Source: a virus (taxonomy: Duplodnaviria > Heunggongvirae > Uroviricota > Caudoviricetes). From it: a stretch of DNA of 26,517 nucleotides. Shown here in pieces: positions 3,418 through 22,773 of this stretch. The notes under the pieces are model-generated. The model did no database searches and was not told where the DNA came from. It saw only the letters and a program-made list of their open reading frames with translations. Location: positions 1-26,517 of IMG/VR virus record IMGVR_UViG_2778261459_000001. One strand, written 5' to 3'. Every line of letters starts with the position of its first letter. Within the stretch, counting starts at the first letter, position 1. Position numbers and translations under genes: made by a program.

Positions 3418-3633
3418 ATGAAATCCATGGATAAGTTAACAACGGGTGTCGCCTATGGTACCTCAGCAGGTAGTGCCGGGTACTGGTTTTTACAGTTGCT
3501 CGATAAAGTCACGCCCTCACAGTGGGCGGCAATAGGTGTGCTGGGTAGCCTGGTATTTGGCCTGCTGACGTACCTGACAAACCTTTATTTCAAGATTAAA
3601 GAAGATAAGCGCAAGGCTGCGAGAGGTGAATAA
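3418..3633 (+). CDS. essD: class II holin / pinholin (phage 21 S-type)
   Basis: 71 aa, [31 protein letters not shown]...[32 protein letters not shown]: two hydrophobic segments and a charged C-terminus; resembles the S21 pinholin / DLP12 EssD from memory. SD GAGGTGGGG precedes the start. Confidence 0.9.
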
Positions 3634-4130
3634 TGCCTCCATCATTACGAAAAGCCGTTGCTGCTGCTATTGGTGGCGGAGCAATTGCTATAGCATCAGT
3701 GTTAATCACTGGCCCAAGTGGTAACGATGGTCTGGAAGGTGTCAGCTACATACCATACAAAGATATTGTTGGTGTATGGACTGTATGTCACGGGCATACA
3801 GGAAAAGACATCATGCTCGGTAAAACGTATACCAAAGCAGAATGCAAAGCACTCTTGAATAAAGACCTTGCCACTGTCGCCAGACAAATTAACCCGTACA
3901 TCACAGTCGATATACCGGAAACAACGCGCGGCGCTCTTTACTCGTTCGTCTACAACGTGGGTGCTGGCAATTTCAGAACATCGACGCTTCTTCGCAAAAT
4001 AAACCAGGGTGATATTAAAGGCGCATGTGATCAGCTACGGCGCTGGACATACGCTGGCGGTAATCAATGGAAAGGACTGATGACTCGCCGTGAGATTGAG
4101 CGTGAAGTCTGTTTGTGGGGGAAACAATGA
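3633..4130 (+). CDS. rrrD: SAR (signal-arrest-release) endolysin, lysozyme family
   Basis: 165 aa. N-terminal Gly/Ala-rich weakly hydrophobic segment ([20 protein letters not shown]) typical of SAR domains, followed by a lysozyme-like core. Start overlaps the holin stop. Confidence 0.9.
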
Positions 4131-4588
4131 GCAGAGTAACCGCGATTATCTCCGCTCTGGTTATCTGCATCATCGTCTGCCTGTCATTGGCTGTTAATCA
4201 TTACCGCGATAACGCCATTACCTACAAAGCCCAGCGCGACAAAAATGCCAGAGAACTGAAGCTGGCGAACTCGACAATTACTGACATGCAGATGCGTCAG
4301 CGTGATGTTGCTGCGCTCGATGCAAAATACACGAAGGAGTTAGCTGATGCGAAAGCTGAAAATGATGCTCTGCGTGATGATGTTGCCGCTGGTCGTCGTC
4401 GGTTGCACATCAAAGCAGTCTGTCAGTCAGTGCGTGAAGCCACCACCGCCTCCGGCGTGGATAATGCAGCCTCCCCCCGACTGGCAGACACCGCTGAACG
4501 GGATTATTTCACCCTCAGAGAGAGGCTGATCACTATGCAAAAACAACTGGAAGGAACCCAGAAGTATATTAATGAGCAGTGCAGATAG
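4127..4588 (+). CDS. rzpD: i-spanin Rz (inner membrane spanin subunit)
   Basis: ATG 4127 overlaps the endolysin stop (ATGA). N-terminal TM segment ([20 protein letters not shown]), then a charged coiled-coil-like periplasmic domain. Confidence 0.85.
4347..4529 (+). CDS. rzoD: o-spanin Rz1 lipoprotein, embedded in the +1 frame of Rz
   Basis: 60 aa, [24 protein letters not shown]...[15 protein letters not shown]...: lipobox VVGC and a proline-rich mature part, entirely inside the Rz gene in another frame. Confidence 0.85.
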
Positions 4589-4619: not shown

Positions 4620-4913
4620 TTATTGTGAGCAATACACCCGCGCTTCCAGCGGAGTATAAATGCCTAAAGTAATAAAACCGAGCAATCCATTTACGAATGT
4701 TTGCTGGGTTTCTGTTTTAACCACATTTTCTGCGCCGCCACAAATTTTGGCTGCATCAACAGTTTTCTCCTGTCCAATTCCCGAAACGAAGAAATGATGG
4801 GTGATGGTTTCCTTTGGTGTTACTGCTGTCGGTTTGTTTCCAACAGTAAACGTCTGTTGAGCACATCCTGTAATAAGCATTGCCAGAGCGGCAGAAAACA
4901 ACATTTTTTTCAT
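4620..4913 (-). CDS. borD: Bor lipoprotein (serum-resistance lysogenic conversion protein)
   Basis: 97 aa from ATG 4913: MKKMLFSAALAMLITGCAQQTF... (lipobox LITGC). Opposite strand to the late operon, as in lambda. Track ORF 4620..4961 includes an unlikely upstream extension. Confidence 0.9.
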   Translation of the reverse strand: MKKMLFSAALAMLITGCAQQTFTVGNKPTAVTPKETITHHFFVSGIGQEKTVDAAKICGGAENVVKTETQQTFVNGLLGFITLGIYTPLEARVYCSQ

Positions 4914-5093
4914 CTTATTATCCTGCATTGTTAAAAACGGCAGAATCCTATGTGACAACAATTAAACGATAGTTAAATGGATTGATGAAAATTAAAACTA
5001 TATAGGTGTACGGTCAGACTATTGGAGGTAGTCAGGATTTGAATGTCAGTCTGTTGTCGGCATTCTGGCAATGCAATTTGGATAAAGCGGGGA

Positions 5094-5216
5094 TTAAAAA
5101 GATAGAGGCGAGCCGGTCAGGTAGAAATGAATCAGGCTCAAAGTGAAGCGGAAAAGGTCTGTGGTACAAGCTGATGCAGCCATAATTACAGCCTGATGAT
5201 TTGTGGAATGAAACAT
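5094..5216 (-). CDS. hypothetical 40-aa peptide with canonical Shine-Dalgarno (MFHSTNHQAVIMAASACTTDLFRFTLSLIHFYLTGSPLSF)
   Basis: Minus-strand ATG 5216..5214 is preceded by AGGAGG (plus-strand CCTCCT 5223-5228) at 6 nt spacing; stop at 5096..5094. Below the track cut-off. No homology recognised. Confidence 0.3.
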   Translation of the reverse strand: MFHSTNHQAVIMAASACTTDLFRFTLSLIHFYLTGSPLSF

Positions 5217-5438
5217 GTTGAACCTCCTTAATTGATGTTATTCGAGTGATGAAGGCATTCTGTCCTTCTATAGTGTCCAGTAAATCAAACAGGAAACTTG
5301 TCCAACGTGTTGGACAAGCCTCTCCATTAGTGAGTTGTATTGATCACAACTCTACAAAGAATTCATTACTGGGTAGATGAAAATAGTTTCACGATGAATG
5401 GAGGAGGCTATGTCGGTGGCTTCTTCATTGGAGTACAT

Positions 5439-5789
5439 ATGCCATCACGAATCCCAAAAGCCTGCCGTGTTCGTGGCTGCCGCCATACCACCACAGACCC
5501 GTCAGGCTATTGTGAAAGCCACAAAAGCGAAGGCTGGAAGCAATACAAGCCAGGACAATCCCGTCATCAGCGCGGTTATGGTTCGAAGTGGGATGTTATC
5601 CGCGTGCGTGTGTTGAAGCGTGACAAAGGCCTGTGTCAGTTATGTCTGCGTGCTGGTGTGGTGCGTGAGGCGAAAACCGTTGACCACATCATCCCTAAAG
5701 CGCATGGCGGCACTGATGCCGACTGTAATCTGCAGAGTCTGTGCTGGCCGTGTCATAAGGCGAAGACGGCCCGTGAACGACTTAAGTGA
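5439..5789 (+). CDS. HNH endonuclease (packaging-associated, HK97 gp74-like position)
   Basis: GGAG 7 nt upstream of ATG 5439. Translation contains CxxC...CxxC and H-N-H elements (CQLCLRAG...VDHIIPKAHGG...NLQSLCWPCH). Sits immediately upstream of the terminase small subunit. Confidence 0.85.
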   Translation: MPSRIPKACRVRGCRHTTTDPSGYCESHKSEGWKQYKPGQSRHQRGYGSKWDVIRVRVLKRDKGLCQLCLRAGVVREAKTVDHIIPKAHGGTDADCNLQSLCWPCHKAKTARERLK

Positions 5790-5815
5790 TAATAATTCTC
5801 AACTGTCTGAGGGGA

Positions 5816-5877
5816 GGGGCGGGTCAAATCTCTGTGACCTGACGTCTTCCGGACTGCCCGCCCCATCGTTTTTTTAT
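5816..5877 (+). terminator. GGGGCGGG...CCCGCCCC stem with a 33-nt loop followed by T7 run; terminator-like, or part of a cos region
   Basis: 8-bp GC stem (5816-5823 / 5857-5864), then ATCGTTTTTTTAT, between the HNH and terS genes. Confidence 0.3.
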
Positions 5878-5914
5878 ACCCGCGAAAAATGAAATTTAAC
5901 CAGGAGTGCCGCAT

Positions 5915-6400
5915 ATGGCTGGAACGGCGGGGCGTTCCGGGCGTCGCCCCAAGCCAACGGCGCGCAAGGCGCTGGCCGGAAACCCCGGCAAGCGAGCCCT
6001 GAACAAAGATGAACCTGTTTTTACGCCCATCAAAGGTGTTGAGCCACCGGAGTGGTTCGCTGAAGAAGATCTCCCTCTCGCCACGATCATGTGGCAACTG
6101 ACAACCAAAGAACTCTGCGGTCAGGGCCTGCTGTGCGTGACTGACCTGGCGGTACTTGAGCGGTGGTGTGTGGCCTATGAATTCTGGCGACGTGCCGTGA
6201 AAAATATTGCCAGACAGGGCAACACCATCACCGGTGCAATGGGCGGCATGGTCAAAAATCCGGAGCTGACCGCCAAAAAAGAACAGGAGTCCGAGATGAG
6301 CAGCACGGGGGCAATGCTCGGACTCGACCCCAGCAGCCGCCAGCGTCTGATTGGCCTGGCGGGGAAGAAGAAAGCCACTAACCCGTTTCTGACAATCTGA
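5915..6400 (+). CDS. terminase small subunit (P27-family-like)
   Basis: SD CAGGAG 8 nt before ATG 5915. N-terminal motif [29 protein letters not shown] is characteristic of this small-subunit family. Immediately upstream of the large subunit. Confidence 0.85.
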
Positions 6401-6413
6401 AAATCATCGAATC

Positions 6414-8147
6414 ATGAGCCGGAAATCTTACCCCAACGTAAATGCAGCCAATCAGTATGCCCGTGATGTCGTGCGCGGAAAGATTGTGGCCTGCCAGTTT
6501 GTGATTCAGGCCTGCCAGCGCCATCTTGATGACCTGATGGCGGAAAAAAGTAAGTCGTTTCGTTACCGCTTCGACAAGGACCTGGCTGAACGGGCCGCCA
6601 AATTTATTCAGCTGTTGCCGCATACCAAGGGTGAGTGGGCATTCAAACGGATGCCCATCACGCTGGAGCCGTGGCAGCTCTTTGTGATCTGCTGTGCGTT
6701 TGGCTGGGTCAATAAAGGTACCCGGCTGCGCCGCTTCCGGGAGGTGTATACCGAAATCCCCCGTAAGAACGGCAAATCGGCAATCTCTGCCGGTGTCGCC
6801 CTGTATTGTTTTGCCTGTGATAACGAGTTTGGCGCGGAAGTGTATTCCGGTGCCACGACAGAGAAACAGGCGTGGGAAGTCTTTCGCCCGGCGCGACTGA
6901 TGTGTAAACGCACACCCATGCTGACGGAAGCGTTCGGGATTGAGGTTAACGCCTCAAACATGAACCGTCCGGAGGATGGCGCGCGGTTTGAACCGCTGAT
7001 CGGTAACCCCGGTGATGGATCATCACCCCACTGTGCGGTGGTGGATGAATATCACGAGCACGCCACCGATGCGCTTTACACCACGATGCTTACCGGGATG
7101 GGGGCGCGACGTCAGCCACTGATGTGGGCCATTACTACTGCCGGGTACAACATTGAGGGGCCGTGCTACGACAAGCGGCGGGAAGTCATCGAGATGCTCA
7201 ACGGCTCGGTGCCTAACGATGAACTGTTCGGGATCATCTATACCGTTGATGAAGGTGACGACTGGACCGACCCGCAGGTGCTGGAAAAAGCCAATCCAAA
7301 TATTGGCGTGTCGGTTTATCGCGAATTTTTGTTAAGTCAGCAGCAGCGTGCGAAAAATAACGCCCGTCTGGCAAACGTCTTTAAAACAAAACACCTCAAT
7401 ATCTGGGTGTCGGCGCGTTCGGCGTATTTCAACCTGGTGAGCTGGCAGAGCTGCGAGGATAAATCACTGACCCTTGAGCAGTTCGAGGGGCAGCCGTGCA
7501 TTCTGGCCTTTGATCTGGCGCGTAAGCTGGATATGAACAGCATGGCGCGACTTTATACCCGCGAGATTGACGGTAAAACGCATTACTACAGTGTGGCCCC
7601 GCGCTTCTGGGTACCGTATGACACGGTGTACAGCGTCGAGAAAAATGAAGATAGACGGACAGCCGAACGCTTTCAGAAATGGGTGGAAATGGGCGTCCTG
7701 ACCGTTACCGATGGTGCAGAGGTGGATTATCGCTACATCCTCGAGGAGGCCAAAGCAGCGAACAAAATCAGCCCGGTCAGTGAGTCACCCATCGACCCCT
7801 TCGGGGCGACCGGGTTGTCACATGACCTTGCTGATGAAGACCTGAACCCCATCACTATCATTCAGAACTACACCAACATGTCCGACCCGATGAAAGAGCT
7901 GGAAGCGGCAATTGAATCGGGGCGCTTTCATCATGATGGCAATCCCATCATGACCTGGTGTATCGGCAACGTGGTCGGCAAAACCATTCCGGGTAACGAT
8001 GATGTGGTGAAGCCCGTCAAAGAGCAGGCGGAAAACAAAATCGATGGTGCAGTTGCGCTGATTATGGCGGTTGGCAGAGCCATGCTGTACGAGAAAGAAG
8101 ACACGTTGTCTGACCACATTGAGTCCTATGGGATCCGCTCGCTTTAA
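6414..8147 (+). CDS. terminase large subunit
   Basis: 577-aa ORF following terS; size, position and overall character match large terminase of HK97-like phages. Confidence 0.9.
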
Positions 8148-8158
8148 CTGAGGTAATT

Positions 8159-8341
8159 ATGATCATGCTGATTCTCGCGCCTCTGGTGGGCGTGCTGGGG
8201 GCGCTTTTGCTGGCGTATGGTGCCTGGCTGATTTATCCCCCGGCGGGGTTTGTTGTTGCCGGGGCGTTGTGTCTGTTCTGGTCGTGGCTGGTGGCGCGAT
8301 ATCTCGACCGTACACAGTCGTCTGTCGGCGGAGGTAAATAG
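8159..8341 (+). CDS. small membrane protein (60 aa, two predicted TM helices) between terminase and portal
   Basis: SD GAGGT before ATG 8159. Translation [49 protein letters not shown]... is almost entirely hydrophobic; stop overlaps the portal GTG start. Confidence 0.5.
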
Positions 8342-9582
8342 TGTTCTTTTCGGGATTATTTCAACGAAAAAGTGACGCACCGGTGACCACGCCAGCAGAG
8401 CTGGCGGATGCTATCGGGTTGTCCTACGACACCTATACCGGAAAGCAGATCAGCAGCCAGCGGGCCATGCGACTGACGGCGGTTTTTTCCTGTGTCAGGG
8501 TGCTGGCGGAGTCGGTCGGGATGTTGCCCTGCAACCTGTATCACCTGAACGGCAGCCTGAAGCAGAGAGCCACTGGCGAACGTCTGCATAAGCTGATCTC
8601 CACGCATCCCAATGGCTATATGACGCCGCAGGAGTTCTGGGAGCTGGTGGTCACCTGTCTGTGCCTGCGGGGAAACTTTTACGCCTACAAAGTGAAAGCA
8701 TTTGGCGAAGTGGCTGAACTGCTGCCCGTCGATCCCGGCTGTGTGGTACCGAAGCTTAACAGTAGCTGGGAGCCGGTCTATCAGGTCACATTCCCGGATG
8801 GCTCCACGGATGTACTGAGCCAGGAGGATATCTGGCATGTGCGCACGCTGACGCTGGACGGACTGGTGGGGCTGAATCCCATCGCCTATGCCCGCGAGGC
8901 AATATCGCTGGCGGCAGCGACCGAAGAGCACGGGGCCAGACTGTTCAGCAATGGCGCGGTGACGTCGGGTGTGTTGCGTACAGAGCAGACGCTGTCAGAT
9001 CAGGCTTATGAGCGCCTGAAGAAAGATTTTGAGGAGCGTCACACCGGGCTTGGCAATGCTCACCGCCCGATGATCCTTGAGATGGGGCTGGACTGGAAGT
9101 CGATGGCGCTGAACGCCGAGGACAGCCAGTTCCTGGAAACCCGCAAGTTTCAGCTTGAAGAAATCTGTCGTCTGTTCCGGGTGCCGTTGCACATGGTGCA
9201 GAACACCGATCGCGCCACCTTCAACAATATCGAAGAGCTGGGGCTGGGATTTATCAACTATTCACTGGTGCCGTATCTGACCCGCATCGAACAGCGGATC
9301 AACACCGGACTGGTACGAAAAAGTAAGCAGGGCGTTTATTACGCCAAATTTAACGCCGGGGCGTTACTGCGCGGGGATATGAAGTCCCGTTTTGAAGCCT
9401 ACGCCACCGGGATCAACTGGGGAATTTACTCTCCCAATGACTGCCGCGACCTGGAAGATATGAATCCGCGTCCCGGTGGTGATGTCTATCTCACACCGAT
9501 GAACATGACCACGAAACCCTCCGATGGCAGTAAAGCCGGTAAGCAGAAGGATAACGCCAATGCAGACGAAACAACGTCTTGA
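8341..9582 (+). CDS. portal protein (HK97 family)
   Basis: 413 aa following terL; GTG start with GGAGGT SD; canonical position and size. Confidence 0.9.
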   Translation: MFFSGLFQRKSDAPVTTPAELADAIGLSYDTYTGKQISSQRAMRLTAVFSCVRVLAESVGMLPCNLYHLNGSLKQRATGERLHKLISTHPNGYMTPQEFWELVVTCLCLRGNFYAYKVKAFGEVAELLPVDPGCVVPKLNSSWEPVYQVTFPDGSTDVLSQEDIWHVRTLTLDGLVGLNPIAYAREAISLAAATEEHGARLFSNGAVTSGVLRTEQTLSDQAYERLKKDFEERHTGLGNAHRPMILEMGLDWKSMALNAEDSQFLETRKFQLEEICRLFRVPLHMVQNTDRATFNNIEELGLGFINYSLVPYLTRIEQRINTGLVRKSKQGVYYAKFNAGALLRGDMKSRFEAYATGINWGIYSPNDCRDLEDMNPRPGGDVYLTPMNMTTKPSDGSKAGKQKDNANADETTS

Positions 9583-10210
9583 TGTACCGCTGAGTCTGAA
9601 ATCTGTCAGTGACTCCGGTGAGTTTGAAGGGTATGGCTCCGTCTTTGGTGTAAAGGACAGCCACGATGATGTGGTGATGTCCGGGGCATTTGCTGCTTCC
9701 CTGCGGGCGTGGAGTGACAGAAAAGCGTTACCTGCGCTGCTCTGGCAGCACCGCATGGATGAACCCATCGGTGTTTACACCGAAATGAAGGAAGACGATG
9801 TCGGGCTTTACGTCAGGGGGCGGTTGCTCATTGATGATGATCCCCTGGCAAAACGCGCACATGCACACATGAAGGCCGGTTCGTTAACCGGCCTTTCTAT
9901 TGGGTACGTCCTGAAGGACTGGGAATACGACCGGACGAAAGAAGCCTTTCTGCTGAAAGAAATCGACCTCTGGGAAGTCAGTCTGGTGACGTTTCCGTCT
10001 AACGACGAGGCGCGGATCAGCGACGTCAAGAACGCGCTGGCCCGCGGGGAAATCCCCGAACAGAAAAAAATCGAAAGAGTCCTGCGTGATGTCGGACTCT
10101 CCCGTACCCAGGCCAAAGCATTCATGGCCGGGGGCTATGGCGCACTGTCCCTGCGCGACGCTGAGGATGTGGGCTCTGCACTGAATGCACTGAAAAATCT
10201 GAACTTCTAA
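9560..10210 (+). CDS. prohead maturation protease (HK97 family, peptidase U35-like)
   Basis: AAGGA SD 8 nt before ATG 9560, overlapping the portal 3' end; between portal and capsid genes. The track's 9524 start is an alternative. Confidence 0.85.
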   Translation: MQTKQRLDVPLSLKSVSDSGEFEGYGSVFGVKDSHDDVVMSGAFAASLRAWSDRKALPALLWQHRMDEPIGVYTEMKEDDVGLYVRGRLLIDDDPLAKRAHAHMKAGSLTGLSIGYVLKDWEYDRTKEAFLLKEIDLWEVSLVTFPSNDEARISDVKNALARGEIPEQKKIERVLRDVGLSRTQAKAFMAGGYGALSLRDAEDVGSALNALKNLNF

Positions 10211-10224
10211 TCAGGAGAAATACG

Positions 10225-11430
10225 ATGGCGGTAGATATTAAAGATGTCGAACAGGTCGCGCAGGAGCTGCAGCAGAAGTTTGACGACTTCAAAGCAAAGA
10301 ACGACAAGCGCGTGGATGCGATTGAGCAGGAAAAAGGCAAGCTTGCCGGGCAGGTGGAAACCCTGAACGGGAAACTCAGCGAGCTGGAAAATCTCAAAAG
10401 CGATCTTGAAAAAGAGCTGCTTGAGCTGAAACGTCCGGCAGGTGGCGCGCAAAATAAACTGGCCACCGAGCATAAAGAAGCGTTTGTGGGCTTTTTGCGT
10501 AAAGGCCGTGAAGATGGTCTGCGCGATCTGGAGCGTAAGGCATTGCAGGTGGGCACCGATGAAGACGGTGGCTATGCCGTGCCGGAAGCGCTGGATCGCA
10601 ACATTCTCACCCTGCTGAAAGATGAAGTGGTGATGCGCCAGGAAGCCACGGTGATCACCGTTGGCGGTTCCGACTACAAAAAACTGGTGAATCTGGGCGG
10701 CACGGCTTCCGGATGGGTGGGGGAAACGGATACGCGATCCCAGACTGCCACCTCCAGACTGGAGCTGATTGAACCTCTCATGGGGGAAATCTACGGCAAC
10801 CCGCAGGCCACCCAGAAAATGCTGGATGATGCCTTCTTCAACGTGGAGGCCTGGATCAACAGCGAGCTGGCAACCGAATTTGCCGAACAGGAAGAAATTG
10901 CCTTTACCACCGGCGATGGTACCAAGAAGCCGAAAGGGTTCCTGGCGTATGAATCCACTGATGAAACCGATAAGGTCCGGGCGTTCGGCAAACTTCAGCA
11001 TATTGTATCCGGCGAAGCGACCGCGGTGACCGCAGACGCCATTATCAAACTGATTTACACGCTGCGAAAGGCACACCGCACTGGCGCGAAGTTCATGATG
11101 AACAACAACAGCCTGTTTGCCATCCGTCTGCTGAAAGACACCGAGGGTAACTATCTGTGGCGTCCGGGGCTGGAACTGGGGCAGCCGTCCTCTCTGGCGG
11201 GTTACGGTATCGCTGAAAACGAACAGATGCCGGATATCGCCGCTGATGCGAAAGCCATTGCATTTGGTAACTTCAAACGGGGTTACACCATCGTTGACCG
11301 TATCGGCACCCGCATTCTGCGTGATCCGTACACCAATAAACCGTTTGTCGGTTTTTATACCACCAAGCGCACCGGCGGGATGCTGGTCGATTCGCAGGCC
11401 ATCAAACTGCTGAAGATTGCAGCGGCGTAA
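10225..11430 (+). CDS. major capsid protein (HK97 fold) with N-terminal coiled-coil delta/scaffold domain
   Basis: 401 aa. N-terminal ~100 residues are highly charged and heptad-like (EQVAQELQQKFDDFKAKNDKRVDAIEQEKGKLAGQVETLNGKLSELENLKSDLEKELLELK); no separate scaffold gene is present, as in HK97. Confidence 0.92.
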   Translation: MAVDIKDVEQVAQELQQKFDDFKAKNDKRVDAIEQEKGKLAGQVETLNGKLSELENLKSDLEKELLELKRPAGGAQNKLATEHKEAFVGFLRKGREDGLRDLERKALQVGTDEDGGYAVPEALDRNILTLLKDEVVMRQEATVITVGGSDYKKLVNLGGTASGWVGETDTRSQTATSRLELIEPLMGEIYGNPQATQKMLDDAFFNVEAWINSELATEFAEQEEIAFTTGDGTKKPKGFLAYESTDETDKVRAFGKLQHIVSGEATAVTADAIIKLIYTLRKAHRTGAKFMMNNNSLFAIRLLKDTEGNYLWRPGLELGQPSSLAGYGIAENEQMPDIAADAKAIAFGNFKRGYTIVDRIGTRILRDPYTNKPFVGFYTTKRTGGMLVDSQAIKLLKIAAA

Positions 11431-11437
11431 TCATTCA

Positions 11438-11457
11438 GGGGCGCGGAACCGCGCCCC
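11438..11457 (+). terminator. GC hairpin GGGGCGCG-GAAC-CGCGCCCC immediately after the capsid gene (attenuator/terminator)
   Basis: Perfect 8-bp GC stem 8 nt after the capsid stop, followed by TGTTCTGA (weak U-tract). Confidence 0.45.
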
Positions 11458-11479
11458 CTGTTCTGACGGGTGAAGAATC

Positions 11480-11680
11480 ATGATCCTGAAACAAGATCTG
11501 AAATGGTCACCGGACGGTATGCGTGTTGAGGTCATTCGGGCCGGTGAGTATGACGACGGGGCGCTTCCTGCCCGGGTGCAGGAGATTGCACTTCAGGCCG
11601 GGTTAGCTGAGCGCGGAACCAATGCAAAAAGCAGTAAAGCGGCAAAAGAGAAAAAAGCCACGACCAGTAAAGAGAGCTGA
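11480..11680 (+). CDS. hypothetical protein (66 aa), Lys/Ala-rich C-terminus
   Basis: ORF in the late operon between capsid and connector genes; weak SD; no family recognised. Confidence 0.4.
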   Translation: MILKQDLKWSPDGMRVEVIRAGEYDDGALPARVQEIALQAGLAERGTNAKSSKAAKEKKATTSKES

Positions 11681-11682
11681 GT

Positions 11683-12006
11683 ATGCTTCTGACAATGGAA
11701 GAGATTAAAGCCCAACTCCGGCTGGATGAGGATTTCGATGCTGATGACCGCCATCTGCAACTGCTGGCCTGTGCGGCGCAAAAGCGGACGGAAACGTATC
11801 TGAACCGGAAGCTCTATGCACCGGATGAATCCATTCCGGACAGCGATCCGGACGGGCTGCACCTGCCGGATGATATTCGTCTGGGGATGCTGATGCTTAT
11901 CAGCCATTTTTACGAAAACCGCTCGTCGGTTACGGAAGTGGAGAAACTCGACATGCCGCAGAGTTTTGGCTGGCTTGTCGGCCCGTACAGGTACTTTCCG
12001 CAATGA
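11683..12006 (+). CDS. head-tail connector (gp6-like)
   Basis: 107 aa in the canonical post-capsid position; start MLLTMEEIKAQLRLD... resembles gp6-type connector/DNA-packaging proteins. Confidence 0.7.
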   Translation: MLLTMEEIKAQLRLDEDFDADDRHLQLLACAAQKRTETYLNRKLYAPDESIPDSDPDGLHLPDDIRLGMLMLISHFYENRSSVTEVEKLDMPQSFGWLVGPYRYFPQ

Positions 12007-12413
12007 AAATTCGTCAGGCGCAGACCAGCGCAACTTACATTCTGCCGGACCCCGGTGAACTGAATAAATGCGTCCTGATCCGCCTGCGGGTGGATATGCC
12101 CGCGGATAACTTTGGCGTGGAGCCTCAATACCCGGTTACGTTCCGGACATGGGCGAAGGTTATCCAGACCAGTGCCACCACCTGGCAGGAAACCGCGCAG
12201 ACCGGGGACGCCATCACCCATTACATCACCATTCGTTACCGCCGGGGGATCACCGCTGATTATGAGGTGGTCTGCGGTGACAGTGTGTACCGGGTGAAAC
12301 GTCAGCGCGATCTGAACGGGGCGCGGCGCTTTCTGCTGCTGGAGTGTACGGAGCTGGGCGAATGTAGGCAGAGTCACGGAGGCAACAATGACGACTTCCT
12401 TTTTGCACGTTGA
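12003..12413 (+). CDS. head closure / head-tail adaptor protein
   Basis: ATG overlaps the upstream stop (ATGA); size and position fit a head-tail joining protein. Confidence 0.65.
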   Translation: MKIRQAQTSATYILPDPGELNKCVLIRLRVDMPADNFGVEPQYPVTFRTWAKVIQTSATTWQETAQTGDAITHYITIRYRRGITADYEVVCGDSVYRVKRQRDLNGARRFLLLECTELGECRQSHGGNNDDFLFAR

Positions 12414-12894
12414 TTTTCAGCAGCCCGCGGAGATGCGCTTTAACCGCGCCCGTGTCCGGCGGGCGTTTGTCACGATTGGTCAGCGTCATATGCGTGATGC
12501 CCGTCGGCTGGTGATGCGCCGTGCGCGGTCGGCACCGGGTGAAAACCCCGGTTATCAGACCGGACGCCTGGCTCGTTCGATTGGTTACATGGTACCCAGA
12601 GCCAGTAAACATCGCCCTGGTTTTATGGCACGTATAGCCCCTAACCAGCGTAATGGAGAGGGAAACCGCCGTATCACCGGTGATTTTTATCCGGCTTTTT
12701 TGTTCTATGGCGTGAGGCGAGGGGCAAAGCGTCGTCGCAGCCATCATCGTGGCGCATCCGGTGGCAGCGGCTGGCGACTGGCTCCACGTAATAACTTCAT
12801 GGTGGAAACGCTTGAAAAGAACCGCAGCTGGACACGCTATTTTCTGGCGCGGGAATTGCGTAAATCACTGAAGCCGGAGCGACGACACAGATGA
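12388..12894 (+). CDS. HK97 gp10-like morphogenesis protein, Arg-rich
   Basis: GGAGG 7 nt before ATG 12388. Basic, Arg-rich 168-aa protein in the head-to-tail joining region. Confidence 0.65.
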   Translation: MTTSFLHVDFQQPAEMRFNRARVRRAFVTIGQRHMRDARRLVMRRARSAPGENPGYQTGRLARSIGYMVPRASKHRPGFMARIAPNQRNGEGNRRITGDFYPAFLFYGVRRGAKRRRSHHRGASGGSGWRLAPRNNFMVETLEKNRSWTRYFLARELRKSLKPERRHR

Positions 12895-13451
12895 AACTGA
12901 CGCCTGTTATTGCTGCACTGCGTGCCCGCTGTCCGTATTTTGAAAACCGGGTTGCAGGCGCGGCCCAGTTCAAAAATCTGCCGGAGGTCGGAAAGCTGAA
13001 ACTCCCGGCGGCATATGTTGTACCGGGTGATGATTCTCCGGGAGAAAACAAAAGCCAGACCGACTACTGGCAGGAGCTGAAAGAGGGTTTCTCCGTGGTT
13101 GTCATACTGAGTAACGGGCGTGATGAGCGCGGTCAGTTTGCCTCGTATGATGTGGTGGACGATGTCCGGCAGATGCTCTTTAAGGCTCTGCTGGGCTGGA
13201 ACCCGGAGGCGTGCGGTAACCCGATTACCTATGACGGCGGCACGCTGCTGGATCTGAATCGTCATGAGCTGATTTATCAGTTCGATTTTTCGGTCATCAG
13301 CGAGCTGACTGAAGACGATACCCGCCATCAGGATGACCTGAACAGTCTGGATGAACTGCAAACGCTGGCGATTGATGTTGATTATCTCGAGCCCGGTAAC
13401 GGGCCTGACGGCGATATCGAACATCACACCGAAATAACCCTTCCTTCCTGA
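12891..13451 (+). CDS. Mu gp37-like tail component (tail completion/terminator-like)
   Basis: 186 aa, start overlaps the upstream stop; lies just upstream of the DUF2635-like/sheath/tube block as in Mu-like tail modules. Confidence 0.6.
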   Translation: MKLTPVIAALRARCPYFENRVAGAAQFKNLPEVGKLKLPAAYVVPGDDSPGENKSQTDYWQELKEGFSVVVILSNGRDERGQFASYDVVDDVRQMLFKALLGWNPEACGNPITYDGGTLLDLNRHELIYQFDFSVISELTEDDTRHQDDLNSLDELQTLAIDVDYLEPGNGPDGDIEHHTEITLPS

Positions 13452-13459
13452 GGATCCTC

Positions 13460-13630
13460 ATGTTTGTGAAACCTGTTAAAGGGCGGTCAGTTCCTGACCC
13501 TGCCCGCGGCGACCTTTTGCCCGCCGAAGGGCGAAATGTTGACGAGAACAACTACTGGCTGCGCCGTGAAGCAGCGGGTGATATCCGGCGCGTGAATAAA
13601 AAGGTGAACACCGATGACGATAAGCTTTAA
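13460..13630 (+). CDS. small protein (56 aa), Mu gp38 / DUF2635-like, overlapping the sheath start
   Basis: ATG 13460 to TAA 13628-13630: MFVKPVKGRSVPDPARGDLLPAEGRNVDENNYWLRREAAGDIRRVNKKVNTDDDKL. Below the track cut-off. Mu-like phages carry a small gene in this position. Confidence 0.5.
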   Translation: MFVKPVKGRSVPDPARGDLLPAEGRNVDENNYWLRREAAGDIRRVNKKVNTDDDKL

Positions 13631-15110
13631 CACCATTCCGTCGAATACGCTGGTTCCGCTGTTTTATGCGGAAATGGATAACCAGGCGGCGAATACTGCA
13701 CAGGACAGCGGAGCATCGCTGCTGATTGGTCATGCCAATAACGGTGCAGAGATTGTTGCCAACAGTCTGGTACTGATGCCGTCGGCAGACTATGCACGCC
13801 AGATTTGTGGTGCGGGAAGTCAGCTGGCGCGTATGGTCGAGGCTTATCGCCAGACTGACCCGTTTGGCGAGCTGTATGTGATTGCCGTTCCTGAATCCAC
13901 AGGCGCGGCGGCAACGGTTACGCTGACGGTGACCGGGGAAGCAACCGAAAGCGGCACGGTGAATGTCTATGTGGGACGTACCCGCGTGCAGGCTCCGGTG
14001 ACCAACGGCGATAACGTCACGACGATTGCCAGCAGTATCCAGGATGCCATCAATGCCGTTCCGGCCCTGCCGTTTACAGCTTCATCTTCGGCTGGTGTTG
14101 TCACGCTGACCGCGCGTCATAAGGGGCTTTGCGGGAATGAAATTCCTGTCAGCCTCAATTACTACGGCTTCGGTGGGGGTGAAGTGCTGCCTGCGGGCGT
14201 ACAGATTGCCGTGGCGACGGGGACCGCCGGAACGGGCGCTCCGGTTCTCACCGGCGCGGTGGCTGCAATGGCGGATGAGCCGTTTGATTATATCGGTCTG
14301 CCGTTCAACGACACGGCCTCCGTTAACACGCTGGTGACCGAGATGAACGATACCAGCGGTCGCTGGAGCTATGCGCGTCAGCTGTATGGTCATGTGTATA
14401 CGGCAAAGACCGGTACGCTGTCAGAACTGGTGACCGCAGGTGACCAGTTTAACCAGCAGCACATTACCCTGGCGGGGTACGAAAAAGAGACCCAGACGCC
14501 TGCCGACGAGCTGGCGGCAAGCCGTACCGCCCGCGCAGCGGTGTTTATTCGCAACGATCCGGCACGTCCCACGCAGACCGGTGAGCTGGTGGGTATGCTG
14601 CCTGCGCCGAAGGGGAAACGGTTCACGATGACTGAACAACAGACCCTGTTGTCTCATGGCGTGGCAACGGCGTATGTCGAAAGCGGGGTACTGCGCATTC
14701 AGCGTGATGTCACCACGTACAGGAAAAACGCTTACGGGGTTGCGGATAACAGCTACCTCGACAGTGAGACGCTGCATACCAGCGCGTATGTACTGCGCAA
14801 ACTGAAATCCGTCATTACCAGTAAGTACGGGCGTCACAAGCTTGCCAGTGACGGTACCCGCTTTGGTCCCGGTCAGGCAATTGTCACCCCGGCGGTGATC
14901 AAAGGGGAACTGCTGGCAACCTACCGTCAGCTTGAGCGTGCGGGGATCGTGGAAAACTACGAACTGTTTAAGCAGTACCTGGTTGTGGAGCGTGATGCCA
15001 GCGATCCGAACCGTCTGAACACGCTGTTCCCGCCTGACTATGTTAACCAGTTGCGTGTCTTTGCCGTGGTTAACCAGTTCCGTCTTCAGTATTCAGAGGA
15101 GTCCGCATAA
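13614..15110 (+). CDS. contractile tail sheath protein (Mu gpL-like)
   Basis: 498 aa; size and position before the tube gene; start MTISFNTIPSNTLVPLFYAEMDN... is typical of Mu-like sheath proteins. Confidence 0.9.
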   Translation: MTISFNTIPSNTLVPLFYAEMDNQAANTAQDSGASLLIGHANNGAEIVANSLVLMPSADYARQICGAGSQLARMVEAYRQTDPFGELYVIAVPESTGAAATVTLTVTGEATESGTVNVYVGRTRVQAPVTNGDNVTTIASSIQDAINAVPALPFTASSSAGVVTLTARHKGLCGNEIPVSLNYYGFGGGEVLPAGVQIAVATGTAGTGAPVLTGAVAAMADEPFDYIGLPFNDTASVNTLVTEMNDTSGRWSYARQLYGHVYTAKTGTLSELVTAGDQFNQQHITLAGYEKETQTPADELAASRTARAAVFIRNDPARPTQTGELVGMLPAPKGKRFTMTEQQTLLSHGVATAYVESGVLRIQRDVTTYRKNAYGVADNSYLDSETLHTSAYVLRKLKSVITSKYGRHKLASDGTRFGPGQAIVTPAVIKGELLATYRQLERAGIVENYELFKQYLVVERDASDPNRLNTLFPPDYVNQLRVFAVVNQFRLQYSEESA

Positions 15111-15466
15111 TGGCCCGTATCGGGGGAACCTGTTATTTCAAAATTGACGGTCAGCAGCTATCGCTGACCGGCGGCATTGAGGTGCCCATGAACAGGACGG
15201 TCAATGATGACATCATCGGCCTGGACGGTTCAGTGGACCGCAAGGAAACTCACCGTGCGCCTTATGTCAAAGGGAGCTTCAAGGTGCCGAAGAATTTTCC
15301 GGTGAGCAAAATCACCTCGTCTGATGAGATGACCATCACTACCGAGCTGGCGAACGGTCAGGTCTATGTATTGTCGTCCGCCTGGCTGCACGGCGAAGCG
15401 AACCATAATGCCGAAGAAGGCACAGTCGATCTTGAGTTCCACGGTGAAGAAGGGGATTACCAGTAA
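15110..15466 (+). CDS. tail tube protein (Mu gpM-like)
   Basis: 118 aa, TAATG overlap with the sheath gene; canonical sheath-tube pair. Confidence 0.85.
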   Translation: MARIGGTCYFKIDGQQLSLTGGIEVPMNRTVNDDIIGLDGSVDRKETHRAPYVKGSFKVPKNFPVSKITSSDEMTITTELANGQVYVLSSAWLHGEANHNAEEGTVDLEFHGEEGDYQ

Positions 15467-15735
15467 TGAAAGAGCTTGAGTTAAAGAAACCGATTATTGC
15501 TCATGGCGAGACACTCTCCGTACTGGAGTTTGATGAACCCACCGGGAAGGATGTCCGCGAGCTGGGGTATCCCTACCAGATGAATCAGGATGAGTCCGTC
15601 AGACTTCTGGCGCATGTGGTGTCGAAATACATTGTGCGGCTGGCGAAAGTGCCGCAAAGCTCTGTCGACCAGATGTCTCCGGCAGACCTGAATGCAGCGG
15701 CGTGGCTTGTGGCCGGTTTTTTCCTCCAGGCCTGA
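15466..15735 (+). CDS. tail assembly chaperone (upstream frame of a frameshift pair)
   Basis: 89 aa, TAATG overlap with the tube gene, directly upstream of the tape measure gene. Confidence 0.7.
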   Translation: MKELELKKPIIAHGETLSVLEFDEPTGKDVRELGYPYQMNQDESVRLLAHVVSKYIVRLAKVPQSSVDQMSPADLNAAAWLVAGFFLQA

Positions 15736-15884
15736 CGGCTGAATACCTCACTGATCGCTTCTTTGACTGCGCCAGTTACTGGCGCATTAATCCCTTCGAA
15801 TTGCTGAATATGCCGATCAGTGAAATTCCCTTGCTGGTCAGTCAGGCAAACAGGATAGAGCAGGAGAAACGCACACATGGCTGA
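15717..15884 (+). other. putative programmed -1 frameshift: slippery heptamer T_TTT_TTC (15717-15723) and -1 frame extension to 15884
   Basis: In the chaperone frame the codons are GGT TTT TTC 12 codons before the stop. The -1 frame is open from the slip site to TGA 15882-15884, which overlaps the tape measure ATG (15877), giving a fusion ending ...RIEQEKRTHG. Confidence 0.5.
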
Positions 15885-17712
15885 ATTTGAGCTTAAGGCG
15901 TTGATCACCGGTGTCGACAGACTTTCTCCCGCGCTGTCGAAAATGCAAAAGAAAATCCGGGGATTTAAACGCCAGGCGGAAGAAGCGTCACAGGGTGGGC
16001 TGGCGCTTGGTGGCGGACTGGCAGCGGGTCTGACGCTTTCCCTGAAATCTTATGCCGATCAGGAAAACGCCGCCACCGGGCTGAAAGTCGCCATGATGGA
16101 TGCGAACGGCGAGGTTGGAAAGAGCTTTCAGGACATCAATAAACTGGCTATTGGCCTGGGTAACCAGCTACCCGGTACAACGGCTGATTTCCAGAACATG
16201 ATGCAGATGCTGGTGCGTCAGGGGATCCCGGCAGAAAACATTCTTGGTGGTGTGGGTAAAGCGACAGCTTATCTTGCGGTACAACTGAAAAAAACACCGG
16301 AAGCGGCTGCTGAGTTTGCTGCAAAGATGCAGGATGCTACCGGAACGGCGTCAGAAGACATGATGGGGCTGTTCGACACTATCCAGAAGGCGTTTTATCT
16401 GGGCGTTGACGATACCAACATGTTGTCCTTCTTCACTAAAACCAGTTCTGTTCTGAAGATGGTGAACAAGGACGGTCTTCAGGCTGCACAGAGCCTTGCC
16501 CCCATCAGCGTCATGATGGATCAGATGGGGATGAACGGGGAGTCGGCAGGTAATGCCCTGCGAAAAGTTATCCAGTCCGGATTAAGTGTTAAGAAAATCA
16601 GGGACGTCAATAAAGTCATGGCTCGCCAGAAACTCGGGGTACAGCTCGATTTTACTGACGGCAAAGGAAGTTTTGGCGGTCTTGATAACATGTTCAGGCA
16701 ACTGGCAAAGTTGCGAAAACTGACCGACGTTAAGCGAACAGGCGTACTTAAGGCAATATTTGGTGATGATGCTGAAACCCTTCAGGTGGTCAATGCTCTG
16801 ATCGATAAAGGAAAGGATGGTTACGATCAGATCCAGCAGAAGATGAATAAACAGGCCAGCCTGAATAAACGTGTTCAGGCACAGCTTGGTACGCTGTCCA
16901 ACCTGTGGGAGGCAATGACGGGGACCGCAACTAACGGTCTTGCAGCTATTGGCGGCGCATTTTCTGGTGACGCTAAAAATATCACGCAATGGCTGGGGGA
17001 GTTGGGGGAAAAATTCACGAAGTTTGCGGATGAAAATCCCCGGGTTATTCGCGGCGTCGTCGGGCTTGCTGCCGGTCTTGCGATTCTGAAACTGGGATTG
17101 ATGGGCGTGGGCAGTGCCATCAGTATTGTCAGCAGGATCATGTCGATGACGCCGATTGGCATGATTGCGACGGCGATAGCCCTGGCTGCGGGATTAATTA
17201 TCACTAACTGGGATGTTGTCGGACCTTATTTTAAGAAACTCTGGGAAACCATTGGTCCTTATTTTGAGGCTGGCTGGGAACTCCTTAAGAAAGTTTTTGC
17301 CTGGTCGCCGCTGGGGATGGTGATCAATAACTGGGGGCCGGTTGTTAAGTGGTTTCAGGATATGTGGGACAAGCTGAAGCCAATTATTGAGTGGTTTACC
17401 GACAGTTCCGGTGACACGGTCGATGCCATTAACTCTGCGCAGTGGGGCGCGGGTGCTTATGATGCTTATGGGACGGGAATACCGGCGCGGGGATACACAC
17501 CTTATCCGGTGGTGGATCCGGCTCAGTCAAACAACGCCTCCGGTGCCACAGGCCCGAATCCCTTCATGATTAACAAAGCTTCTGCGCCAAAAGTTGATGG
17601 TGAGATCAAGGTCTCTTTTGTGAATTCGCCTCCGGGTATGCGGGTTATGGAAACGCGATCCAGCGGTTTTGATGTCAGCCATGATGTTGGCTATACGCGC
17701 TTTGGCAGGTAA
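15877..17712 (+). CDS. tail tape measure protein
   Basis: 611 aa with Ala/Gly-rich and hydrophobic segments and a Trp-rich C-terminal region; follows the chaperone frameshift pair. Confidence 0.9.
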   Translation: MAEFELKALITGVDRLSPALSKMQKKIRGFKRQAEEASQGGLALGGGLAAGLTLSLKSYADQENAATGLKVAMMDANGEVGKSFQDINKLAIGLGNQLPGTTADFQNMMQMLVRQGIPAENILGGVGKATAYLAVQLKKTPEAAAEFAAKMQDATGTASEDMMGLFDTIQKAFYLGVDDTNMLSFFTKTSSVLKMVNKDGLQAAQSLAPISVMMDQMGMNGESAGNALRKVIQSGLSVKKIRDVNKVMARQKLGVQLDFTDGKGSFGGLDNMFRQLAKLRKLTDVKRTGVLKAIFGDDAETLQVVNALIDKGKDGYDQIQQKMNKQASLNKRVQAQLGTLSNLWEAMTGTATNGLAAIGGAFSGDAKNITQWLGELGEKFTKFADENPRVIRGVVGLAAGLAILKLGLMGVGSAISIVSRIMSMTPIGMIATAIALAAGLIITNWDVVGPYFKKLWETIGPYFEAGWELLKKVFAWSPLGMVINNWGPVVKWFQDMWDKLKPIIEWFTDSSGDTVDAINSAQWGAGAYDAYGTGIPARGYTPYPVVDPAQSNNASGATGPNPFMINKASAPKVDGEIKVSFVNSPPGMRVMETRSSGFDVSHDVGYTRFGR

Positions 17713-17733
17713 TGAAAAATTAATCTGTTAATG

Positions 17734-17759
17734 AGTCCCACTCCGGTGGGATTTTTTAT
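17734..17759 (+). terminator. hairpin AGTCCCAC-TCCG-GTGGGATT followed by TTTTTAT, just after the tape measure gene
   Basis: Stem-loop plus U-tract 22 nt after the tape measure stop; lies inside the track's upstream extension of the next ORF, supporting the later start at 17773. Confidence 0.45.
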
Positions 17760-17772
17760 GTACGGAGTTTAT

Positions 17773-20177: not shown

Positions 20178-20725
20178 TGAGGACGATTGAAGCCATGCAG
20201 CGACAACTCCTCGGCCTGATTGGGCGGGCCGTGGTGAAAAGCATCAGTGCCGCCACGAAATGTCAGACCGTGGATGTGTTCCTGATTGCCGGTGAACCCA
20301 AAGCCGGGGTTGAACATCTTGAACCCTACGGTTTTACCGCAAGGGCAAACAGCGGTGCGGAAGCGGTGGTGTTGTTTCCGGATGGCGACCGTTCTCATGC
20401 GGTGGTTGTTACGGTGTCGGACCGTCGCTACCGCCTGAAAGGGCTGCAGACGGGTGAGGTGGCTGTCTATGACGATCAGGGGCAGTCCGTGACGCTGACC
20501 CGGGAGGGGATCGTGGTGGACGGTGCAGGTAAAACGATCACGTTTCGCAATGCACCTGAAGCACGTTTTGAAATGGACCTGGAAGTGACAGGACAGGTGA
20601 AAGACCTGTGCGACTCCGGCGGCACCACCATGTCAGCGATGCGGCTTGCCTATAACGGGCATAGTCACAGAGAGAACGGTCAGGGCAGTAACACCGACAA
20701 ACCGGATAAAGCGATGGAGGCATGA
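20177..20725 (+). CDS. baseplate assembly protein V (spike, Mu gp45-like)
   Basis: 182 aa, start overlaps the upstream stop; fits gpV-type proteins by position and size. Confidence 0.8.
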   Translation: MRTIEAMQRQLLGLIGRAVVKSISAATKCQTVDVFLIAGEPKAGVEHLEPYGFTARANSGAEAVVLFPDGDRSHAVVVTVSDRRYRLKGLQTGEVAVYDDQGQSVTLTREGIVVDGAGKTITFRNAPEARFEMDLEVTGQVKDLCDSGGTTMSAMRLAYNGHSHRENGQGSNTDKPDKAMEA

Positions 20726-22770: not shown

Positions 22771-22773
22771 TCC

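Follow-up and report, generated by a model that had tools for sequence, protein, structure and literature searches.

The window analysed here, a stretch of DNA 26,517 nucleotides in length, carries what is very probably the cos packaging site of an SfV/SfI-like lambdoid prophage together with the HNH endonuclease gene of its packaging machine, as judged by comparison with related phages. The cos feature itself is already described, in that a near-identical sequence with experimentally mapped ends is found in phage SfI. The features of the region are the following.

5439 to 5789, + strand: HNH endonuclease gene, 116 amino acids, ATG at 5439 and TGA at 5789 (Pfam HNH PF01844, E=5.3e-15)
5790 to 5914, no strand: HNH-to-small-terminase spacer, the cos region, 125 bp, near-identical to the circularised junctions of SfV and SfI
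5812 to 5834, no strand: block 1, G-box plus TCAAATCYCT (GGGGAGGGGCGGGTCAAATCTCTG), of high information content in 37 relatives
5835 to 5850, no strand: variable linker of a fixed 16 nt between block 1 and the nicking site, of low information content
5851 to 5868, no strand: nicking site (equivalent of lambda cosN), GGAC/TGCCCGCCCC/ATCG, with slashes at the overhang borders, from column counts in the alignment of relatives
5855 to 5864, + strand: 10-nt cohesive end TGCCCGCCCC, identical to the SfI end mapped by virion-end sequencing
5871 to 5899, no strand: block 3, T-tract plus ACCCGCGAAAAATGAAATTTAA, candidate small-terminase recognition site (equivalent of lambda cosB), nearly invariant in 37 relatives
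5915 to 6400, + strand: small terminase, P27 family, 161 amino acids (Pfam Terminase_4, PF05119, E=2.4e-21; TIGR01558)
6414 to 8147, + strand: large terminase, HK97 type, with ATPase and nuclease domains (PF03354 and PF20441)

The spacer, whose length of 125 bp an earlier note on this DNA had given exactly, has essentially the same sequence as the circularised end-junction of the Shigella phages SfV, SfI, SfII, and SfIV, and its conservation among relatives is far above chance. The records of these phages begin at window positions 5790 (SfII), 5848 (SfV and SfIV), and 5865 (SfI). When the virion ends of SfI were determined by run-off sequencing, the 10 nt TGCCCGCCCC were absent from both reads (PMC3636060), and the paper describing SfIV reports that the cos is identical in SfI, SfII, and SfV. 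The window shares with the SfV-type phages this 10-nt end, at 5855-5864 within the matching junction, as well as the gene order. One base just after the overhang differs between the SfI spacer and the window (G in SfI, A5865 in the window), and SfV agrees with the window there. The similarity extends well past the junction, since positions 5439-23069, the 17.6-kb morphogenesis region, are 97.5-97.9% identical to SfII, SfI, and SfIV. This prophage could be defective at other loci. As shown on the near-identical phages, terminase would cut concatemeric DNA in the spacer and leave virion DNA with a single-stranded end of TGCCCGCCCC. From the analogy with HK97, we infer that the cohesive ends are 3' extensions, with the + strand extended at the right genome end. 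Among 5426 complete E. coli genomes, 1179 (22%) carry the HNH-cos module. The identification of the site fixes the genome ends of this prophage type, which is very common in E. coli/Shigella.

The genes on either side are arranged as in the HK97-type HNH-dependent cos packaging module, defined by Kala et al. in 2014 according to the papers that cite it. Along the DNA come HNH, cos, the small terminase (TerS), the large terminase (TerL), portal, S78 protease, and HK97-fold capsid, and the genes downstream of TerS match PF03354, PF20441, PF04860, PF04586, and PF05065. As the earlier note had stated, the HNH gene lies directly upstream of the terminase genes, and the order is the same in relatives from other species, 36 of 36 of which, from Enterobacterales to Cupriavidus, have an HNH homologue in this place. 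Of 120 viral-contig matches to a DNA pattern, 112 likewise have an HNH homologue upstream, in a set where the search pattern itself imposed the constancy of blocks 1 and 2. The small terminase starts with the ATG at 5915, preceded by a Shine-Dalgarno sequence, AGGAG, at 5902-5906. It scores 76.2 bits with TIGR01558 and 76.4 bits with PF05119, above the curated cut-offs of 45.6 and 24.7 bits that define the P27 family; a profile search found no solved structure of a P27 small terminase.

In HK97 as well, the HNH gene is the last before cos and the terminase genes are the first after it. The window TerL is homologous to HK97 gp2 (26% identity, E=7e-30), and its HNH protein to HK97 gp74 (41% identity over 46 aa, E=1e-10). 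HK97 gp74 stimulates cos cleavage in vitro, and the HK97 cohesive ends are 10-nt 3' overhangs (PMC11331095, PMC9410871). The earlier note had proposed an alignment with the HK97 cos as a check on its suggestion that the site lies in this spacer. In that comparison, HK97 is cut at TGAC/CGCCGCCAAA/GTTT, giving a G/C-rich 10-nt 3' overhang preceded by GAC, as in the window. Upstream of the cut, HK97 has a G-run plus TCAAATCT at an offset from the nick identical to that of block 1, and downstream it has, like the window, ACCCG plus an A/T-tract where its TerS binds. Together with the junction match and the mapped SfI end, these homologies uphold the earlier proposal of an HK97-style, HNH-assisted cos packaging module. 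The two systems differ in that the overhang sequences are different, gp74 is without the N-terminal zinc-ribbon segment of the window HNH, and the HK97 spacer is much longer, with the HNH stop codon ~320 bp before the cut. The small terminases are also unrelated in sequence (BLASTP E=6.4, hhalign profile probability 0.4%), and since the window TerS belongs to the P27 family, the module is a sister arrangement and not a set of HK97 orthologues.

The spacer was aligned across 37 relatives picked by TerS similarity. The alignment runs over 98 nt without gaps and contains three conserved blocks at fixed spacing, the linker between block 1 and the nicking site being constant in length save for a single 1-nt insertion. 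At the nicking site, the left border GGAC/YGCC is strongly conserved (A5853, C5854, G5856, and C5857 in 37 of 37 relatives), and the right border poorly, at no more than 0.76 bits per column. Block 1, a cos subsite upstream of the cut, is conserved and is a candidate for a cosQ-like or nuclease-positioning site. The G-box plus TCAAATCTCT, always 31 nt away from the left nick, would position the nuclease complex for cutting, and may act at termination in the manner of lambda cosQ, an analogy of position only. In some relatives the G-box contains the HNH stop codon, so that gene and site are interlocked. Block 3 takes in most of a run of seven T's (T7, 5869-5875) and lies at a position comparable to the HK97 TerS site, which occupies +15 to +29 and includes an A-tract (PMC11331095). 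Relatives whose TerS shares 73% identity or more show no change in it, and at a TerS identity of 35% or less other sequences take its place, even as HNH remains 73-82% identical and blocks 1 and 2 stay the same. Small terminase would bind here, on the first-packaged side of the cut.

A similar tripartite layout is known from the cos of phage lambda (cosQ, cosN, and cosB), where the nicking site lies between an upstream element and, on the first-packaged side, a downstream region to which the small terminase binds. However, lambda lacks an HNH, its overhangs are 5' and 12 nt long, and between its gpNu1 and gpA and the window terminases there is at most a distant relationship. Also, lambda cosB uses IHF, whereas a search of the window spacer for the IHF consensus WATCAANNNNTTR with at most one mismatch gave no site. 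The TCAAATCTCTG box was considered as an IHF site and rejected, since it would need three mismatches and its conserved bases include ones that IHF does not read.

The earlier note had also drawn attention to a G/C stem in the spacer, made up of GGGGCGGG (5816-5823) and CCCGCCCC (5857-5864), and to a T7 after it. The repeat is there, with all eight positions complementary and 33 nt between the arms. Taken alone, it is no more than marginally unusual: of 5000 dinucleotide shuffles made from the spacer, 316 (6.3%) contain an 8-bp inverted repeat that is perfect and has a loop of 3-60 nt, and only two all-G/C 8-mer repeats of this kind exist in the 26.5-kb window. The T7 is likewise present, 4 nt (ATCG) beyond the right arm and so not directly adjacent to it. 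The left arm falls within block 1, and because the SfI end corresponds to 5855-5864, the right arm falls within the cohesive end. The stem is not conserved as a secondary structure. Pairing across the 37 relatives holds in 72.6% of cells compared to 74.7% in column shuffles, with 479 of 500 shuffles at least as high, no covariation is seen in these relatives, and the RNAalifold consensus is -1.7 kcal/mol. Judged from this alignment, the complementarity of GGGGCGGG and CCCGCCCC appears to arise incidentally from two G/C-rich sites under independent constraint, and not from a functional hairpin.

One could consider the stem and T7 as a rho-independent terminator, or another RNA structure, dividing the lysis/HNH transcript from the packaging transcript, which was the earlier note's other suggestion and is very unlikely. 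An all-G/C 8-bp repeat with a T7 within 4 nt is suggestive of one, and the Xenorhabdus relatives L034 and L035 do have a canonical 9-10 bp hairpin abutting the T7, with the cohesive-end sequence embedded in it; covariation tests on these two lineage-specific hairpins gave no family-wide support. In the window, however, the loop is 33 nt in place of the 3-8 nt of such terminators, the U-tract does not abut the stem, and a promoter and terminator scan made no call in the spacer. The terminator rule fits only 10 of the 37 relatives, although the T-tract is kept in all 37. RNA folding is not distinctive compared to shuffles (z of -0.14 for the spacer and -1.55 for the stem/T7 sub-element), and Rfam gave no real match in the whole window at the gathering threshold and, at E<=1 over 4900-6000, only a spurious miRNA match inside the HNH gene. 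Late transcription in lambdoid phages is Q-antiterminated and must pass cos to reach the head genes, which argues against a terminator at this place.

The repeat could instead work as DNA, in that cos cleavage might require it as a cruciform or as a recognition element with two-fold symmetry. In the SfV clade the two arms are perfectly complementary, every relative has G-rich and C-rich elements, and there is a weak two-fold symmetry around the overhang consensus (GAC-N10-GTC, with the GTC in ~11 of 37 relatives and in SfI). But the centre of the repeat (~5840) is far from the nick sites at 5854/5855 and 5864/5865, several of the eight pairs are broken in many relatives without compensatory changes, and slid-register controls pair at 59-69% compared to the 72.6% of the true register, all of which makes a role of this kind most unlikely.

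The HNH gene is better understood as part of the packaging machine. Its product has the catalytic His, Asn, and His and the two CxxC zinc ligand pairs of a beta-beta-alpha-metal nuclease; the core residues C66xxC69, H83, N97, C102xxC105, and H106 align with C76/C79, H93, N109, C114/C117, and H118 of the HNH nickase of phage GVE2, whose structure (PDB 5h0m) the protein matches over its full length (E=1.5e-12). The N-terminus carries a zinc-ribbon-like motif, C9-x4-C14 and C25-x2-H28, in which MPSRIPKAC..GC....D..YCE.HK aligns with GVE2 residues 1-30. This two-part architecture of zinc ribbon and HNH is shared by the Gamma and GVE2 enzymes, the N.phiGamma nickase being 35% identical to the window protein, and places the protein in the N.phiGamma/N.phiE2 group of zinc-ribbon HNH nicking endonucleases, which reportedly adjoin terminases (Xu and Gupta in 2013). 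The paper on SfIV guessed at a role for HNH in lysis timing, and the papers on the Shigella phages made no link between HNH and packaging. That the gene is instead a free-standing, selfish homing endonuclease with no part in packaging is barely credible: several GenBank phage records do label the product "homing endonuclease" and homing nucleases are often HNH enzymes, but its synteny with cos and TerS is strict (36 species-level relatives and 112 of 120 viral contigs), it is homologous to a stimulator of cos cleavage (HK97 gp74) and to the Gamma and GVE2 nickases, which are encoded next to terminases, and its stop codon lies within the G-box in some relatives. The packaging-module reading would correct both the "homing endonuclease" and the "lysis-timing" labels.

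The same homology bears on how the two nicks are divided between the nucleases. For the nickases of GVE2 and Gamma the core site is CG^GT, or AC^CG on the other strand (PMC3592412, PMC4027164). Since the window HNH is their full-length homologue and this core fits the left cos border, there is a hint that HNH makes the bottom-strand nick. It would do so at the invariant GGAC/YGCC border (bottom strand 5'-GGCA^GTCC), while the top strand would be nicked by the TerL nuclease at an unconserved sequence 10 nt further right. At the left border CG^GT stands on the bottom strand in HK97, in 16 of the 37 relatives, and in phage Gamma, whose own cohesive end has the left border GTAC/CGCC. In the window the bottom strand reads CA^GT there (AC/TG), which is a "star" site for N.phiGamma and not the cognate AC/CG. 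The coincidence of nick site and border involves a 4-bp core, with a chance of ~1 in 64 over two borders and two strands, and HK97 gp74 and HrdP of the lactococcal phage sk1 have been reported to be non-specific on their own.

The Bacillus phages Gamma, Wbeta, and Fah, with the cos sequence CGCCGCCCC, allow the comparison to be taken further. Gamma is cut at GTAC/CGCCGCCCC/CTCA and has AGGGGCGGGTC at the same offset from the left border as block 1 in the window, and the TerS of this group also belongs to the P27 family. The group differs in its 9-nt overhang, its Gram-positive hosts and low-GC genomes, an unrelated downstream sequence on the TerS side, and an HNH stop codon located inside the G-box. 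The polarity of the ends is given differently in the literature: a PhageTerm-based paper calls Wbeta-type ends 5' overhangs (PMC8878798), whereas according to a review the Fah ends are 3'-extended. Taken together, the comparison singles out the G-box as an upstream cos element, so far uncharacterised, that is common to HK97, SfV-type, and Bacillus Wbeta-type phages.

A broader and tentative reading, rather less likely to hold than to fail, is that HNH-dependent cos phages of Gram-negative and Gram-positive hosts share an ancient cos design. The G-box would lie ~31 nt upstream of an invariant AC/YGCC, a zinc-ribbon HNH with N^GT specificity would nick the bottom strand there, TerL would measure 9-10 nt for the second nick, and the small-terminase site would be exchangeable. 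As a separately exchangeable module, that site would make the cos cut a mosaic joint. If true, this design would settle which nuclease cuts which strand, a question left open in a 2024 structural paper on HK97, and it offers that field a concrete proposal for how TerL and HNH make a 3' overhang.

The window also differs from SfV on the left of the module. In SfV the HNH gene follows directly after Rz1, whereas in the window Rz and HNH are separated by a bor gene and ~480 bp of DNA without ORFs.

The window covers a lambdoid prophage late region whose genes are arranged as follows.

3418-3633, P21-type holin
3633-4130, lysozyme
4115-4588, Rz
4620-4961, minus strand, bor
5439-5789, HNH endonuclease
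5790-5914, spacer
5915-6400, small terminase (TerS)
6414-8147, large terminase (TerL)
8341-9582, portal
9524-10210, S78 prohead protease
10225-11430, HK97-fold capsid protein

The ATG at 5439 is taken as the start of the HNH gene because its homologues open alike, namely SfV orf53 and SfI_0066 (351 nt each) and the HNH gene of Geobacillus virus E2, or GVE2 (MPSKP). The spacer is exactly 125 bp long and contains two inverted-repeat arms, GGGGCGGG at 5816-5823 and CCCGCCCC at 5857-5864, lying 33 nt apart, with the right arm followed by ATCG and then by a run of seven Ts (T7) at 5869-5875. An earlier note had singled out this arrangement of an HNH gene upstream of the terminase genes, a 125-bp spacer, a G/C repeat, and a T7, and all of these elements are in place. 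An 8-bp inverted repeat also occurs in 6.3% of dinucleotide-shuffled spacers and is by itself only mildly unusual.

The note’s candidate cos region is indeed the cos region, and the feature, correctly interpreted there, was already known. A 2013 study mapped the cos ends of practically this sequence by reading SfI virion DNA outward from primers in the HNH gene and TerS (PMC3636060). Compared to the prophage, the virion reads lacked 10 nt, 5'-TGCCCGCCCC-3', from which cos-type packaging was concluded (PMC3636060). These 10 nt are window positions 5855-5864, and the right arm of the repeat is the cohesive end itself. In a megablast search against phage records, Shigella phage records open inside the spacer (SfII at 5790, SfV and SfIV at 5848, and SfI at 5865), and the SfV and SfI record ends, once joined, match the spacer almost base for base. 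The SfIV paper describes the cos as identical across SfI, SfII, SfIV, and SfV, and the SfII announcement places it at bp 59-125 of that record (window 5848-5914). The stretch 5439-23069 is 97.5-97.9% identical to SfII, SfI, SfIV, and coliphage vB_EcoM-689R6. Among 5426 complete E. coli genomes, 1179 carry the HNH-cos-TerS stretch, and sequence identity puts the element in the SfV-type cos group. Both run-off reads were gapped, as recessed 5' ends would give, from which we infer 3'-extended ends like those of HK97; the SfI paper does not itself state this.

The note’s further suggestions, that the GC stem and T7 form a structured element or a terminator, are rejected. As RNA, the spacer folds no better than its shuffles (z=-0.14; z=-1.55 for the stem/T7 sub-element), an Rfam search gave no match for the stem/T7, and a promoter scan found no promoter-like sites in the spacer. 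A terminator scan of the spacer left the stem/T7 uncalled on account of its 33-nt loop and the 4-nt gap between stem and T-run. To compare relatives, 43 loci from other species were gathered via the small-terminase protein; the alignment termed A1 covers 98 nt of the cos region in 37 distinct sequences selected on TerS similarity, from Shigella, Edwardsiella, Serratia, Xenorhabdus, Photorhabdus, Gilliamella, Morganella, and Cupriavidus. The T-tract is invariant in all 37, and the canonical terminator rule fits only 10 of them, the window not included. The eight proposed pairs are paired in 72.6% of A1 cells compared to 74.7% in column shuffles, slid registers pair in 59-69%, no excess covariation was found among the 37 sequences, and the RNAalifold consensus is -1.7 kcal/mol. 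What is conserved is therefore primary sequence at fixed spacing, the signature of a protein-binding site.

Apart from a single 1-nt insertion, A1 is free of gaps, and three conserved blocks can be told apart in the cos region (a slash marks a border of the cohesive end here and below).

5812-5834, block 1: the G-box plus TCAAATCYCT
5835-5850, linker: variable in sequence, fixed in length at 16 nt
5851-5861, block 2: GGAC/YGCCNSC
5871-5899, block 3: TTTTTATACCCGCGAAAAATGAAATTTAA, nearly invariant

A5853, C5854, G5856, and C5857 are found in 37/37 sequences, and 5862-5868, which take in the overhang’s right end and the next few bases, hold at most 0.76 bits per column. Block 3 lies at +7 to +35 from the cut and contains ACCCG and A/T-tracts.

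Relatives from Xenorhabdus form two further strong hairpins, which were rejected as family-wide elements. In one, the G-box pairs with the next pyrimidine tract over 12 bp (63.7% of A1 cells paired); the other is a terminator-like hairpin embedding the overhang (39.3%). In X. innexi (L034) and X. szentirmaii (L035), the cohesive-end sequence sits inside a canonical 9-10 bp hairpin with T7 directly after, for example GACCCAAGG-GACCGCCA-CCTTGGGTC-TTTTTTT, and the cos region is ~75 nt upstream of the CGCGAAA anchor. Both hairpins are lineage-specific and absent from the E. coli/Shigella clade.

The HNH protein has a complete set of ligands and catalytic residues (C66xxC69, H83, N97, C102xxC105, and H106) and an N-terminal CxxxxC...CxxH motif. 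It matches the GVE2 HNH protein (PDB 5h0m), whose zinc ligands and catalytic residues are experimentally defined, over its full length (E=1.5e-12), and shares 35% identity with N.phiGamma and, over 46 aa, 41% with HK97 gp74. The packaging role of terminase-adjacent HNH proteins was reportedly established for HK97 in 2014. A scheme of two nicks, one by HNH and one by TerL, is credited to Kala et al. and to Quiles-Puchalt et al. as the general model. Strand-specific nicking with the core CG^GT, or AC^CG on the other strand, was shown for N.phiGamma and N.phiE2 (Xu & Gupta; PMC3592412; PMC4027164), and the biological role of these enzymes was regarded as unknown by the same authors (PMC3592412). 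The cohesive end of Bacillus phage Gamma starts ...GTAC/CGCC, which therefore places an N.phiGamma core site at the left cos border, in a strand and polarity that fit a 3' overhang. The border is AC/CG in HK97 and 16 of the 37 relatives, AC/TG (CA^GT, a documented star site) in the window and 18 others, and AC/GG in two.

The HNH protein would thus nick the bottom strand, sequence-specifically, at the left border, and TerL would nick the top strand 9-10 nt away. The invariant left border, the variable right border, and the nick-site match fit this model, which is one of two options left open by the 2024 HK97 paper (PMC11331095). Caution is called for since the coincidence of nick site and border is that of a 4-bp core and gp74 and sk1 HrdP seem non-specific in isolation. 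Also, Wbeta-type phages were assigned 5' overhangs by PhageTerm in one paper (PMC8878798), while Fah ends are elsewhere called 3'-extended. In the literature covered, with Kala 2014 and Quiles-Puchalt 2014 outside it, the match between nick site and cos border was not found stated. What is added to the known site is modest: the discounting of the stem as structure, the three-block cos, and the agreement of the left border with the site at which HNH proteins of this family nick.

Experimentally defined ends were compared without gaps, anchored at the left border. The HK97 cos reads ...GGGGGGGGGATCAAATCT-N21-AC/CGCCGCCAAA/GTTT, with TCAAATCT at an offset exactly equal to the window’s. The Gamma cos reads ...AGGGGCGGGTC-N27-AC/CGCCGCCCC/CTCA, with an 11-mer identical to the window’s at exactly the same offset, and the Gamma record has the 9-nt end at both termini. 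In GVE2, GGGTAGGGGCGGTC lies ~28 nt ahead of a putative border, GGGAC/CGGCGG, in the HNH-to-TerS spacer. The minimal TerS site of HK97 is at +15 to +29 past the cut (CTAACCCGATTTTTT), A-tract included (PMC11331095), and block 3 likewise has ACCCG and A/T-tracts. The window resembles HK97 in its homologous TerL and HNH, gene order, 10-nt G/C-rich end, and upstream box. However, its TerS belongs to the P27 family, scoring over the TIGR01558 cut-off, and shows no sequence relationship to HK97 gp1; by TerS family the module is closer to those of Bacillus Gamma/Wbeta and GVE2 than to HK97. A lambda-type cos was rejected, as there is no IHF site, the terminase is another one, and the overhang polarity is opposite (3' here by inference). 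In Gamma (L052/L050), GVE2 (L051), L011, L018, and L021, the HNH stop TAG falls inside the G-box (GGGTAGGGGCGGG), so gene end and cos element overlap, whereas in the window the stop precedes a non-coding G-box by 22 nt.

A scan of viral contigs with AGGGGCGGGTC-N27-ACYGCC, a pattern that itself imposed the constancy of blocks 1 and 2 in this set, returned at least 119 contigs, and an HNH homologue ends just upstream in 112 of 120 pattern matches. The matches were sorted into classes according to what lies downstream of the cut, with identities given relative to the window.

Class A, 71 matches: HNH 60-99%, TerS 75-100%, TerL 82-100%; block 3 of the window type
Class B, 20 matches: HNH 73-82%, TerL 36-37%; block 3 CGCCGCAGGTTCGAAAAC-T8
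Class C, 13 matches: HNH 37-38%, TerS 32-39%, TerL 28-29%; block 3 AACCGCGAAATGAAAAG-T7

The class B TerS is too divergent for tblastn against that of the window and is P27-like by eye. In the TerS-selected A1, block 3 is invariant though HNH identity drops to 44-56%. Since block 3 is exchanged along with divergent TerS and is invariant where TerS was selected, it tracks TerS; across the cut, the HNH gene keeps company with the G-box and nick border, which makes the cut a mosaic joint. This assignment of proteins to blocks is plausible. In L055, L056, L064, and other class B contigs, the left side is kept (HNH 73-82%, G-box, and nick border) and the right side (block 3, TerS, and TerL at 36%) is from another lineage. 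A contig labeled “MAG: Bacillota bacterium” (L007, JAEWTL010000102.1) has a TerS 99% identical to the window’s and the same cos spacer, and is probably a binning contaminant from an enterobacterial prophage.

Elsewhere in the late region, the ~480 bp between bor and HNH (4962-5438) have no ORF of at least 50 aa and include a near-perfect palindrome at 5293-5322 with a 13-bp stem (GAAACTTGTCCAACGTGTTGGACAAGCCTC), which on the minus strand is called terminator-like. SfV lacks this stretch, its HNH gene coming directly after Rz1, and 5300-5834, counted here as including the palindrome, is ~80% identical to stretches of several vB_EcoS coliphages. A strong terminator-like hairpin at 8177-8204 (12 pairs plus TTTT) lies in the 190-bp gap between the TerL end (8147) and the portal start (8341), within a 60-aa ORF at 8159-8341. 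The sole other all-G/C 8-bp inverted repeat of the window belongs to a 9-bp G/C hairpin at 11437-11458 (AGGGGCGCG-GAAC-CGCGCCCCT), 7 nt past the stop of the major capsid gene and with no T-run behind it, which may be a post-capsid attenuator or an mRNA-stabilising hairpin.
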